Source: an uncultured Poribacteria bacterium
Lineage (GTDB): Bacteria > Poribacteria > WGA-4E > WGA-3G
Direction: 5' to 3'
Assembly: GCA_951813565.1 (NCBI GenBank)
Contig: OX638351.1
Coordinates: 2,752,001-2,816,000, forward strand
DNA length: 64,000 bases
This document shows positions 11,321 through 14,301 of this stretch, one piece after another (within the stretch, counting starts at the first letter, position 1; each line of letters opens with the position of its first letter). The position numbers and the translations under genes are program-made. The notes beneath the pieces are model-generated. The model saw only the letters and a list, made by a program, of their open reading frames with translations, did not search any database and was not told the DNA's origin.

Positions 11321-12292
11321 CTAAGCAGCAAGTGTTTGGATCGGATATTCGTTATCGTATTCGGGGGCTGCCCAGAACGGACTCCAATCTGTGGCTCGCT
11401 CCTTTCCGATGTAAAGCGTCTTTCCGATAACTGCCCATGCTGTTCCATCGGATGTAAACGCAATACAACCCGTGCGAATTCGATCGGTGGATTCTGTGAG
11501 CTGATCGTTGAGTTGAGTCCACGTCGCGCCACCATTCTCCGAACGACAGAGCCAAGCGCCACCGCCTCTTGGTCCGTTTTGAACTGTGGCGATCAGTAAG
11601 TCTGGGTCTGCTGGATGTACTGCAATAGCGGTGCCGTAGCGAACCGGCAACCCTTCAATCCGGTTTACCCACGAGTTCCCTCGGTCTTTGCTGACATAGA
11701 CACCGTTTTGGGTATTCGCATAAACTTGATGATCGTCCGCGGGACATGTAGCGACCTGATGGACATCTTTATGAAGTTCTGGCGTTACAGGTTCCCACGA
11801 AACACCTTCATCGGGGGAACGCATGACACTTCCCACATGGATATCTGCATAACAAAAACCGTCTTGAGTTTTAGCAAAAGTCCGCACGGCTGGTGGGCCT
11901 CCCCACGGCGTATACCAATCTTTCCGACATTCTAATTCGTCAAATGCGATGACCCGTTCAGCCGGCCCTTCTTCTCCAACGAGGCGATAGACATAAGCAC
12001 CCTCATCCGTTCCGATGAGCAGAGTCAACGGATCCTCACGAACAACGAGCAACGAAGCGATTGGATCCTCTATACCTGTTGGAATCTGTTTCTCACCATC
12101 CTCCGATAAAACCAGTAGCGTTCCATCCGACAAAGCGGACACCACGGTTTGACCGCTTGACAGTGAAACCATTGCACCGTGCGGAGCCTTTCCGCCGAGA
12201 CCTTGATAGTCTGTGCTTTTGTAGATTATGGTGGGTTCACCACTTCCATTATCTTCAACAGCATAGATAGCGTTGTAAGTAGCAATAAACAT
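11321..12292 (-). CDS. Beta-propeller protein with BNR/Asp-box repeats
   Basis: S.D.G.SW repeats (SPDEGVSW, SKDRGNSW, SENGGATW). Confidence 0.8.
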   Translation of the reverse strand: MFIATYNAIYAVEDNGSGEPTIIYKSTDYQGLGGKAPHGAMVSLSSGQTVVSALSDGTLLVLSEDGEKQIPTGIEDPIASLLVVREDPLTLLIGTDEGAYVYRLVGEEGPAERVIAFDELECRKDWYTPWGGPPAVRTFAKTQDGFCYADIHVGSVMRSPDEGVSWEPVTPELHKDVHQVATCPADDHQVYANTQNGVYVSKDRGNSWVNRIEGLPVRYGTAIAVHPADPDLLIATVQNGPRGGGAWLCRSENGGATWTQLNDQLTESTDRIRTGCIAFTSDGTAWAVIGKTLYIGKERATDWSPFWAAPEYDNEYPIQTLAA

Positions 12293-12300
12293 TATGTTCC

Positions 12301-12450
12301 CTGTTCCTTCAAAACTGTGTTTCTCAATGTAAACATCAGTTTTAGTGTTCCTGCTTCAGCGTCCACTGCCTTCCAACGAGGTCTTACACGGACTCGATAG
12401 GCGTTTTACATCTCATGCGAACCGCACACGATGGTTCTTAGGTTGATAGC
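12301..12450 (-). ncRNA. Putative omegaRNA/reRNA scaffold of TnpB
   Basis: Overlaps tnpB 3' end and runs to the predicted right end; contains GTAAGACC...GAAGCAGGAA and a terminal hairpin; 5' boundary approximate. Confidence 0.55.
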
Positions 12451-13500
12451 AGCATTTACGTCGCGGTCTTCTGTGAAACCGCAACTTTGGCAATGATATT
12501 GCCTTTCTGATAGTGATAAATCTTCTTTCTTATCACCGCAGCGGCTACAGGTCTTGCTTGAGGCGAAAAACTGCGGGGCTTCTACAACAGGTATACCCAA
12601 CCCTTCGGCTTTGGATTTGAGTTTCGCCAGAAAACCACTGATCGCTGAATCCGATAAGGCTTTCGCCAGTTTCTGATTCTTGAGCATGTTCGTAATTTTC
12701 AGCGTTTCAATACCGATAGCACTCGCATTCTTAACTATCTCCGTTGTCGCTTTATGGTGTGCGTCCTCACGGATGCAGGCAATACGATAGTGGAGTTTTT
12801 CCACTGCCTCTTTCTGCTTATACCAATTGTTGGATCGAAACACCTTCTTGCTCAACTTACGTTGCTCCCGCTTAAGTTTTCGCTCATAACGCTTCAGCGG
12901 TCTTGGGTTCTCATACTTTGTGCCATCATCAAGAGTTGCGAGAGTGTTGATACCTACATCTATGCCGACGACAGGGAGTCCACGGGTATCACGTGGAACA
13001 TTCGGTAATCCTGTTTCGACAAGGATGCTAACGAACCAACGATGCGCTTTCCTTGAAATTGTCACGCGACGGATTTCACCGTCAAACCTCAACGCTTCAA
13101 ACATAGAAACCTTCCCAATTTTCGGGAGACGGATATGTTTGCCTTCCACTTTTACCTTTGTGCCTTCAACCGTATAGGACTGACGGTGTGAACGCTTTTT
13201 ATACTTCGGAAACTTGTTTGCTCCATCCTTCCAACGTTTGATAGCCTCACCAAGATTCTCAAACGCATACGCAGAGGCGCGCTGATCACAGGCACCGCAC
13301 CAGTCAAACTTCTCACGTTTTGCGGCGTTGAACCGTTGGCGCAACGTCCGAGCAGAACGCCATTCGTCTTTCGACAAACCGTCTTTGAAATCAGAGAGTC
13401 CATAGTTGAACGCAACACGCGCATAACCGCATTGTTGGGCAAACCATGACCGCTGTTTTTCTGTAGCGCGCAAGGCTATCTTGTGTGCTTCTAATGCCAT
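12406..13500 (-). CDS. tnpB: RNA-guided endonuclease TnpB
   Basis: N-terminal HKIAL...CGYARVAFN, RuvC-I GIDVG, RuvC-II GIETL, Zn ribbon CSRC/CQSC, RuvC-III DRDVNAAIN. Confidence 0.95.
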   Translation of the reverse strand: MALEAHKIALRATEKQRSWFAQQCGYARVAFNYGLSDFKDGLSKDEWRSARTLRQRFNAAKREKFDWCGACDQRASAYAFENLGEAIKRWKDGANKFPKYKKRSHRQSYTVEGTKVKVEGKHIRLPKIGKVSMFEALRFDGEIRRVTISRKAHRWFVSILVETGLPNVPRDTRGLPVVGIDVGINTLATLDDGTKYENPRPLKRYERKLKREQRKLSKKVFRSNNWYKQKEAVEKLHYRIACIREDAHHKATTEIVKNASAIGIETLKITNMLKNQKLAKALSDSAISGFLAKLKSKAEGLGIPVVEAPQFFASSKTCSRCGDKKEDLSLSERQYHCQSCGFTEDRDVNAAINLRTIVCGSHEM

Positions 13501-13513
13501 TCGGGTATATCTC

Positions 13514-13597
13514 GTATCTCGTTTTTACCGCTTGTCAGAGTCGGTCGGCGAGGAGACCGCACTTGCGTGCGGCTGACAAGTCCTCGCCACGAGATAC
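13514..13597 (-). ncRNA. Candidate structured 5' leader RNA of tnpB (three-way junction with loop-bulge kissing/pseudoknot)
   Basis: Perfect complementarities 13514-22/13589-97, 13547-54/13581-88, 13531-38/13573-80, and 13557-62/13567-72 (GCAA loop on minus strand). Confidence 0.65.
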
Positions 13598-13601
13598 TAT
13601 C

Positions 13602-13631
13602 ATTATACTACTTTTCTACACGAAATGTGAA
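13602..13631 (-). promoter_or_regulatory. Element-borne sigma70 promoter driving leader+tnpB
   Basis: TTCACA-18 nt-TATAAT; predicted start site coincides with the first paired base of the leader. Confidence 0.5.
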
Positions 13632-13671
13632 GAAAAACATACAGAAACATAGAAAAAGAACTGTTTAGGAA

Positions 13672-14301
13672 CTACTCCTTTTTCGTGTAGCATCGGAATA
13701 ACTTTGGTCCGTAGTGGAAGTCTGGATCAAGCTTTGCAGCTTCTTTAACCGCCTCTTGTTCAGTATAGGTTGTCGTTGTGTAATCGCGGCCATAATCACG
13801 CTCCCGTGTCATGAGATTATAGAAAAAGTTGACAGCAAAAACCAATCCTGAAACGGTATCAACATAGCCTTCAGTGGGTCCGATGTAGGAGCGGTAACCG
13901 GACTTTAGGAAGGCTTCAGCCAATGGCTGTCTGCCGGCGCCACAAGGTATAGCGATTAGGGTGCCCTCTCGGTTTTGGACATGTTCAGTAATTTTATCGG
14001 GTGTCAATTCAACGATGACCGAGTCCCAATCTTCTTCGTTTTCGTAATCGCCCGAAGCCTGATCTACAACGTCAAGTCTGAGGGCCATATCCTCTGGCGT
14101 GCCGCCTCCGCCGTGGCAAAGGATGATCGTATACGCATAGTTACGAGGTTGTGCGAAGAAATCAAACACTTGTGGTTTCTGGACAAAGCGATAGAAATCA
14201 ACACGCAGCCTAAAACTTTCGAGCATTCCACGAAGGGCAGACGCTTCTTCAGTCATCGTATGGTCACAAACGATTGCAACCGGTGTAAATAGTCTTAACA
14301 T
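13672..14301 (-). CDS. Stand-alone CHAT/caspase-fold-like protein
   Basis: YTIILCHG...TLIAIPC...LAEAFLKSG..SYIG...VD...F...FFYNL resembles the CHAT His-Cys dyad pattern; AGAGGA RBS. Confidence 0.6.
   Translation of the reverse strand: MLRLFTPVAIVCDHTMTEEASALRGMLESFRLRVDFYRFVQKPQVFDFFAQPRNYAYTIILCHGGGGTPEDMALRLDVVDQASGDYENEEDWDSVIVELTPDKITEHVQNREGTLIAIPCGAGRQPLAEAFLKSGYRSYIGPTEGYVDTVSGLVFAVNFFYNLMTRERDYGRDYTTTTYTEQEAVKEAAKLDPDFHYGPKLFRCYTKKE

Follow-up and report, generated by a model that had tools for sequence, protein, structure and literature searches.

An IS607-like element between two host genes

The window analysed here, a stretch of 64,000 nt, comes from an uncultured Poribacteria bacterium, a sponge symbiont (GCA_951813565.1, contig OX638351.1, positions 2,752,001-2,816,000, forward strand). 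On its minus strand, an upstream host gene at 13672..14301 (209 amino acids, no Pfam family) and a downstream one at 11321..12292 (323 amino acids, BNR/sortilin-type repeats) flank a 1,374-bp insertion (12301..13674) of the same orientation that carries an intact tnpB (12406..13500, 364 amino acids, ATG at 13500). Its product matches HTH_OrfB_IS605, OrfB_IS605 and Cas12f1-like_TNB in Pfam and has RuvC-type acidic motifs as well as two CxxC motifs (residues 179, 263, 318, 337 and 345). The best named relatives are about 40% identical and several adjoin IS607 transposases; the named relatives in a set of 80 genome loci all belong to Poribacteria except one labelled 'uncultured bacterium'.

The bounds of the element follow from contigs of RNA libraries, which stem from relatives of the window genome (shares 0.05-0.13) and were used for junctions and coverage. 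In contigs of runs X1 and X7, position 12300 is followed directly by 13675, the two letters at the joint being assignable to either flank, and the element therefore spans 12301-13674 at an AG core; a contig of run X3 has the empty-site joint one base off. Sequence comparison finds both ends in sister copies. The left end (13632..13674, minus strand) is free of an IS605-type hairpin, and its first codon is the stop codon of the upstream host gene. The right end (12301..12414, minus strand), judged from its position a putative omega-RNA-like scaffold, is conserved in sister elements, has no match in Rfam and, in the RNA libraries, lies within many contigs from related elements. Its last bases form a replacement Shine-Dalgarno sequence for the downstream host gene, whose start codon lies 8 nt beyond the element.

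The AG core thus used lies between the host Shine-Dalgarno sequence (GGAG) and the host start codon. Sister copies have GGAG or TGAG as left flank wherever the left junction was recovered, and 17 of 19 right-end matches have a plausible host start codon 3-11 nt further on, opening 16 frames of at least 116 amino acids and one of 23 codons. That short frame, next to sister L384, ends in CTT TGA, and we take it to be the programmed-frameshift start of release factor 2. With the element removed from the window, the upstream stop overlaps the downstream start (TAATG, 12292-12300/13672-13680); in the filled site the first codon of the element is the stop, leaving the upstream host protein two residues shorter. 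At the joint, relatives differ from the TAATG read in the window by a base or two. Insertion at such a site was considered as a novelty and dropped: the available text of PMC11061315 gives AGGAG as the TAM of ISFba1-type IS607 TnpB, with RAGATH-18 as its guide RNA, and this target motif accounts for the insertion site here.

The element has no tnpA, as originally predicted, and its left end is 43 bp from the -35 box. Three IS607-type serine tnpA genes elsewhere in the genome (G000:C1 at 1,649,073, 2,156,606 and 3,270,087) are possible mobilizers in trans. Each of them is followed by an unusually long TnpB-like frame of about 550 amino acids. The AG core dinucleotide and the restoration of the empty site on removal agree with IS607 insertion, a serine tnpA is missing from within the element, and IS200/IS605 subterminal hairpins are absent from the left end of this copy, whereas many other carriers of the leader described below have them. 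We read the carrier as a non-autonomous IS607-like element. One further element, L055, is chimeric, with a left end like that of the window's IS607-type copy and a right end of the IS605 hairpin type. The sister L398 (1229-1595) is an internally deleted copy of 366 bp in which both ends and the scaffold survive, whereas the -10 box and the leader are gone.

A knotted leader family

Ahead of tnpB lies an element-borne sigma-70-type promoter (13602..13631, minus strand) with the -35 box TTCACA at 13631-13626, an 18-nt spacer and the -10 box TATAAT at 13607-13602, from which transcription is predicted to start at 13597-13595. Of 69 homologous leaders, 66 have a promoter score of at least 14 at this position. 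The fold behind it, 84 nt on the minus strand, fills the tnpB 5' UTR. At the predicted 5' end of the transcript stands the 5' strand of helix P1 (13589..13597), the strand that would switch partners, followed by P2 (13588-13581 with 13554-13547), a bulge (13580-13573) with the kissing strand at 13579-13573, the hairpin P3 (13572-13557) and the hairpin P4 (13527..13545). The P4 loop (13538-13532) is complementary to the bulge over 7 bp, or 8 bp if P4 frays, and forms the 3' strand of a kissing helix. The 3' strand of P1 comes in two copies: copy 1 (13514..13522) would close P1 in state 1 with 13 nt free before the AUG, copy 2 (13507..13515), on a weak Shine-Dalgarno sequence, in state 2 with 6 nt free.

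Promoter, P1, both arms, bulge and tnpB ATG all lie where the original prediction had put them, and folding confirms the almost fully paired segment that it had described: the minimum free energy structure is that very fold at -43.2 kcal/mol, with z scores of about -5 (-4.98 for 100 nt, -5.49 for 87 nt), and 0 of 200 shuffles were as stable. The opposite strand folds almost equally well (z -4.3), so that the strand is not fixed by folding energy alone. An IStron intron had been set aside on grounds of length, rightly so: 174 bp separate the left end from the ATG, and none of the group I models gave a match.

In 106 homologous loci (110 less four that have no N-terminus), the sequence upstream has the same topology in different letters. 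In class A, that of the window, the kissing strand lies in the bulge and P3 caps the arm; in class B, P3 is absent and the kissing strand is a hairpin loop; in class C, which precedes other tnpB families in the same genome, the second P1 partner overlaps the AUG. Covariation was assessed in MAFFT alignments unfitted to structure, with 26 sequences of one subgroup for class A (A5) and 18 of equal helix length for class B (A3); other leaders of both classes were kept out where MAFFT misregistered them, and disrupted copies (L047, L052, L060, L078, L100), a copy that has no copy 2 (L024) and near-duplicates were kept out of alignments and energies alike.

Class A leaders are paired in 96.5% of cells with two-sided changes in 20 of 34 pairs, class B leaders in 95.7% with 19 of 26. 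In class A, P2 reaches 98.6% and P3 99.4%; the kissing helix is paired in 99.4% of class A cells (two-sided changes in 5/7 pairs) and in 99.1% of class B cells (6/6). P4 is 100% paired and shows no two-sided change in class A, and the equivalent class B hairpin covaries at one pair. The one-sided changes in both classes are G-U on the transcribed strand. Slid partners pair in 33-48% of class A cells and in 33-52% across both classes, a contrast inflated by the use of these sequences, which are kin, in deriving the structure; no shuffle reached the observed values. An automatic finder recovered kissing helices of at least 6 bp in 66 of 89 class A, 22 of 50 class B and 1 of 5 class C leaders, and among its 59 distinct kissing pairs, complementary by selection, 44 of 3,422 cross-combinations pair. 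Comparative support for a real kissing pseudoknot, predicted originally as a loop-bulge pairing, is strong, and the alignments are compatible both with a kissing helix that coexists with P1 and with one that alternates with it.

Compensatory changes preserve a compact core of P2, a small hairpin, a kissing helix of 6-7 bp and, optionally, P3, fixed in position between the promoter and the nuclease start codon. Invariant columns, which in a riboswitch could line a ligand pocket, number 8 in an 18-sequence alignment of class A and 4 in a 37-sequence alignment of class B; several are at the junction, few are common to both classes, and the linker is A-rich. The P3 arm is optional across the family and its loop varies freely. 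By eye, a hairpin with a 3-nt loop seems recurrent between the two P1 partners in class B (alignments A2 and A3); it uses part of copy 2 and could offset the two states.

Covariance models seeded from tnpB leaders were run on 151 Poribacteria genomes. The class A model (R1) matched in 90 of them with at least 1,110 matches, the class B model (R2) in 47 with at least 250 and a broader model (R3) in 101 with at least 1,390, all lower bounds, with at most 26-29 candidates scored per genome. Every match falls in two Poribacteria families (f1 and f3), one 4.0-Mb genome alone having 63, and none in 25 genomes of the seven other families. R3 had no match in 5 genomes of other genera. Nor had R1 in 9 distant tnpB loci of plasmid, phage or metagenome origin, a sample far too small to argue for absence beyond Poribacteria; a TnpB scan of viral contigs gave no match either. 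A 16-letter leader motif in 91 viral stretches was dismissed as chance, with 0 of 80 examined stretches matching R1. Within its own genome the leader is single-copy by blastn, which also found no match in plasmids, and a descriptor scan of that genome gave 33 hits, 11 of them true leaders including 2 new ones, one in a mini-element and one ahead of a palindromic insertion and an ORF of no known family, both described below; the remainder were called chance by eye, and the scan missed several known copies.

In Rfam, whose families include IS605-orfB, RAGATH-18, C4, riboswitches and small ribozymes, the window has no match at gathering score. At E values up to 10, Rfam 15 returned three chance matches in 12200-13800 (E 3-7.6), all off the leader and none to RAGATH-18, and 12 loci covering classes A, B and C gave none at E up to 1. 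We found no published description of the family, mainly in the open literature outside the supplements of motif screens, where it may be listed; the available text of PMC5737381, PMC13565253 and PMC10691335 contains none. The undescribed cis-regulatory RNA of the original prediction thereby passes both the check for covariation in homologues, which is strong, and the Rfam check, which is blank and leaves its novelty standing. On comparative grounds the leader is a real, uncatalogued RNA family.

What follows the leader was surveyed for 149 model hits, a non-random set of top and low scorers further biased by the tnpB-seeded models. A TnpB confirmed by blastp lies downstream in 122, from families with identities down to about 25-35%; 23 precede what by eye appear to be broken tnpB starts, 3 precede GIY-YIG genes (by Pfam, L257 falling just under the GIY-YIG cut-off) and 1 belongs to a mini-element. 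The three GIY-YIG genes share a 141-kb contig (G110:C1; L145, L257, L366, L253), probably a plasmid or phage, on which no IS ends were seen; a fourth similar ORF there follows a class B leader, a tnpB also stands behind a leader, and the leaders are of class A or class B. In the window's own genome, with 49 OrfB_IS605 matches, the leader is absent where tnpB follows tnpA or a remnant of it, as well as from one tnpB family with a very short leader; the commonest tnpB family there mostly has only a tnpA 3'-end remnant ahead of tnpB and no leader.

Carriers have IS605-type ends, IS607-type ends or no visible IS ends, which argues against a transposase-binding DNA end, and in IS605-type carriers the end hairpin is separate and upstream of the promoter. 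The leader goes with promoter and start codon and not with the element ends. Mini-elements devoid of tnpB (G000:C1 at about 963,560-963,950, minus strand, L373 and L378; and L333) consist of an IS605-type left end, promoter, leader, short spacer, omega-RNA-like scaffold and right end, and could be guide-RNA donors or recent deletions. At about 5,087,970-5,088,810 of G000:C1 (minus strand; L372, L377), promoter and leader are followed by a palindromic repeat insertion and a 108-amino-acid ORF that matches no Pfam family; a GTG with a stop close behind lies within the second P1 partner of this copy. The ORF behind one leader had been likened to HicB, a reading abandoned when no Pfam family was found.

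Two registers at the start codon

The original prediction had noted that the tandem P1 3' strand offers an alternative register over the ribosome-binding region, and this second partner covaries in classes A and B. Copy 1 is 88.9% paired in class A, with two-sided changes in 6 of 9 pairs; copy 2 is 83.8% paired with 5 of 9 in class A and 91.1% with 5 of 7 in class B, compared with 20-52% for slid controls. The cell counts for copy 2 exceed those of all shuffles, and its kin-robust pair count was reached by 44 of 500 shuffles in class A and 41 of 500 in class B. Among 144 distinct leaders, two registers of at least 6 bp, some of them miscalled, were identified in 86 of 89 (A), 42 of 50 (B) and 5 of 5 (C). 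The layouts differ: the copies form a 7-nt tandem in class A and lie about 17 nt apart in class B, and copy 2 contains the AUG in class C. Median distances to the AUG are 6, 7 and -3 nt from the end of copy 2 and 13, 24.5 and 13 nt from the end of copy 1 in classes A, B and C. At positions where the copies differ, 49 of 88 pair in both registers (77 distinct triplets, after 17 of the 144 leaders were dropped for short or miscalled registers) against 26.7 expected, which homogenization of the repeat alone would not give.

Computed with no pseudoknot term and with an assumed start site, the two states are close in energy. State 2 is predicted to lie 0.6 kcal/mol above state 1 in the window copy, the medians being +1.4 (A), -1.2 (B) and +1.2 (C) kcal/mol, and the states are within 2 kcal/mol of each other in 49 of 89, 35 of 50 and 3 of 5 leaders. 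Opening the start region in a transcript from the element's own promoter would cost 1.8 kcal/mol here and a median of 2.1 (A), 4.6 (B) and 2.7 (C); being cheap to open, the leader looks poised, not locked. In the window, copy 2 overlaps the best anti-Shine-Dalgarno duplex (-3.0 kcal/mol). Class A Shine-Dalgarno sequences are weak (median -3.0 kcal/mol) and overlap copy 1 in 61 of 85 leaders and copy 2 in 57 of 85, about equally, so that ON and OFF are assigned mainly by the free length before the AUG. The overlap with copy 2 in 43 of 43 class B leaders results in part from the design of the search, which did not reach as far as copy 1.

Both a covarying 5'-UTR fold and mutually exclusive pairing over the Shine-Dalgarno sequence or start codon, two of the marks of a translational riboswitch, are found here by comparison and computation. 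From the conserved knot, the two partners and the fixed position we infer a function: with a probability of roughly 0.6, the leader is a cis-acting two-state translation switch that makes up the entire 5' UTR of selfish-nuclease transcripts. Copy 1, emerging first during transcription, would close P1 on the knotted core and leave the start region open (ON); a shift of P1 to copy 2 would then block 30S binding (OFF). Given their similar energies, either folding kinetics or a binder of the three-way junction could decide between the states, and in a kinetic version each transcript would be translated for a short time. Such a switch would serve to keep a genotoxic DNA nuclease scarce while its message, which in the case of tnpB also carries the guide RNA, continues to be transcribed. 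Several observations speak against such a switch. The leader is kept in the tnpB-less mini-elements, where no adjacent nuclease start is there to be gated, and one leader stands ahead of a distant non-nuclease ORF; the class B copy L024 has no copy 2; the weak Shine-Dalgarno sequence of class A overlaps copy 1 as often as copy 2; and the pair count of copy 2 was reached by some of the shuffles mentioned above.

If the leader is a switch, kinetics or plain equilibrium tuning has about even odds of being what sets it, and a host protein and a metabolite or ion are each a less favoured trigger, one as much as the other. None of three triggers tested, read-through, antisense and pairing with the element's 3' end, held. 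A further-reaching proposal, which we regard as less likely than not, is that the leader is a riboswitch of a class not yet described, with aptamer and expression platform in one, or senses a host protein, and that a cellular signal thereby licenses homing nucleases of both the TnpB and the GIY-YIG kind.

The main rival is a 5'-end clamp in which the knot pairs the first nucleotides and shields the transcript or guide precursor from 5'-end-dependent decay, copy 2 serving to keep the clamp closed. The first paired base follows the -10 box by 4-8 nt in all 127 of 127 leaders (offsets of at least 4 searched), as a clamp would have it, and mini-elements (G000:C1 near 963.7 kb; L333) join promoter and leader to an omega-RNA-like scaffold with tnpB missing. 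A clamp, however, leaves unexplained the placement of copy 2, which is on the start region or AUG in each of three layouts, the mini-elements are possibly recent deletions, and the deleted sister L398 keeps its scaffold but no leader. We consider it improbable as the sole function, and it may operate alongside the switch. Protection from read-through, whereby transcripts from host promoters would extend the helix over the start so that protein is made from the element promoter only, fits an element that sits between two genes of its own orientation. In 51 of 56 clustered leaders the opening energy rose with the native sequence upstream, and in 38 of 56 it exceeded the value for shuffled sequence, with a large effect in class C (14.6 against 6.3 when swapped, n=2). 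Yet it exceeded swapped upstream sequence in only 31 of 56, in the window copy the native value (3.7) was lower than those for shuffled (5.2) and swapped (6.5) sequence, and in 78 of 89 leaders of class A read-through favoured copy 1 over copy 2; a plain hairpin would also suffice, making the pseudoknot superfluous. Such protection seems distinctly unlikely.

Antisense control, named in the original prediction together with a likeness to the P1 C4 and P4 CI RNAs, would have a counter-transcript, as in IS200 art200, contact an exposed loop and flip P1. The exposed and highly variable loops would lend such a system element specificity, and opposite-strand promoter-like sites near the start are in small excess (score of at least 14 in 9 of 69 loci against 1 of 69 controls), 20 of the 69 best sites falling within a single 10-nt bin. 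Their median best score is nonetheless 13.0 against 12.0 for a mid-gene control and 16.5 for the sense promoter, the clustering may stem from coding sequence that kin have in common, perfect partners for the loops exist in cis and no Rfam family of the C4 or CI type matched; we rate antisense control as very unlikely. No better, in our view, fares the idea of a catalytic RNA or of a second RNA component for TnpB, the latter also part of the original prediction. The compact pseudoknot, some invariant junction bases, the A-rich linker and the leader-plus-scaffold mini-elements would suit either, but the Rfam searches at the locus and in 12 loci matched no ribozyme family, HDV/theta, pistol, hammerhead and twister included. 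The helix order is unlike that of HDV-type ribozymes and the P3 loop is variable. An arm that is optional, with a freely variable loop, fits neither proposal. The leader is moreover common to GIY-YIG genes and missing from other tnpB families, and the 3' end of its own element pairs with it better than swapped ends do in only 25 of 63 cases. Nor is it an omega-RNA, which lies at the right end with a flank-derived guide: the leader sits 5', and a separate putative scaffold is at 12301-12414. Finally, IS605 ends work as single-stranded hairpins, and the strong folding of both strands could suggest a DNA structure at the left end that a transposase binds as single-stranded DNA. The end hairpin of IS605-type carriers is separate from the leader, though, the fold also occurs with IS607-type ends and at GIY-YIG genes where no IS ends are visible, and its position is tied to the -10 box and start codon instead of the element end. 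This reading is largely refuted and the least probable of all. The original prediction as a whole is thus partly supported, with its RNA standing and its antisense and second-component roles not supported.

A two-state switch would address a topic that is little described, as we found no paper in the literature on the control of TnpB expression in tnpA-less elements. TnpB cuts DNA and its message is a guide precursor; the element must therefore transcribe well and translate sparingly. The leader family is a concrete candidate answer: a switch of about 90 nt, rich in natural compensatory variants, either register of which could be locked by mutation. Portable across unrelated nuclease families and types of transposon end, it behaves as a module of its own. 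Its known range, established by sequence comparison, is narrow, comprising two Poribacteria families with uncultured hosts. If a ligand flips the leader, it would represent a new riboswitch class; if none does, a natural two-state switch would still be useful for work on RNA folding and for tuning compact editors. Should a cellular signal license it, transposon homing would be tied to the state of the host through RNA in over a thousand mobile elements of one lineage.

Relation to known regulatory RNAs

A close functional parallel is the tnpA 5' UTR of Salmonella IS200, where a stem-loop hides the Shine-Dalgarno sequence with a reported 20-fold repression, in the available text of PMC5435999; it likewise illustrates that a transposon's own leader can hide the Shine-Dalgarno sequence of a DNA-cutting gene. 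IS200 employs a simple stem-loop, the antisense RNA art200 and Hfq on tnpA, whereas the Poribacteria leader, found on tnpB and GIY-YIG genes, is a three-way junction with a pseudoknot and two alternative partners that co-evolve, and its predicted state is open, with median opening energies of 2.1-4.6 kcal/mol. Hairpins sequestering the ribosome-binding site are likewise described, in the available text of PMC3014915, for phage I-TevI, I-TevII, I-TevIII, mobE, segB and T4 gene e. There, too, RNA structure at the start region gates selfish nucleases, GIY-YIG enzymes included. These hairpins form only in transcripts initiated upstream, in contrast to a leader whose whole fold is downstream of its promoter and for which no specific read-through effect was found.

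Among mobile elements, ISFba1 resembles the present case in its IS607 type, its TnpB and its target motif, a Shine-Dalgarno sequence; its RAGATH-18 is a 3' guide scaffold, and a 5' leader is not described in the available text of PMC11061315. IStrons are IS605/IS607 elements with a large self-splicing group I intron, as far as the available text of bioRxiv 10.1101/2023.11.20.567912 goes, and in them, too, a structured RNA precedes tnpB at the left end; the characterized CboIStron uses a GG core, against AG here. The leader differs in its length of about 90 nt, its own promoter and the absence of a match to group I models.

In architecture the leader comes close to translational riboswitches with loop-loop or bulge-loop pseudoknots, such as the purine, ZTP and c-di-GMP-II classes, with which it shares a three-way junction, a 5' P1, a kissing pseudoknot and a swap of P1 partners near the Shine-Dalgarno sequence. 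It departs from them in having no Rfam match, a kissing sequence free to vary and few bases invariant across classes, and the regulated nucleases suggest no metabolite. By the tests run, the leader belongs to none of the compared systems: it would work like the IS200 and phage leaders and is built like a riboswitch.
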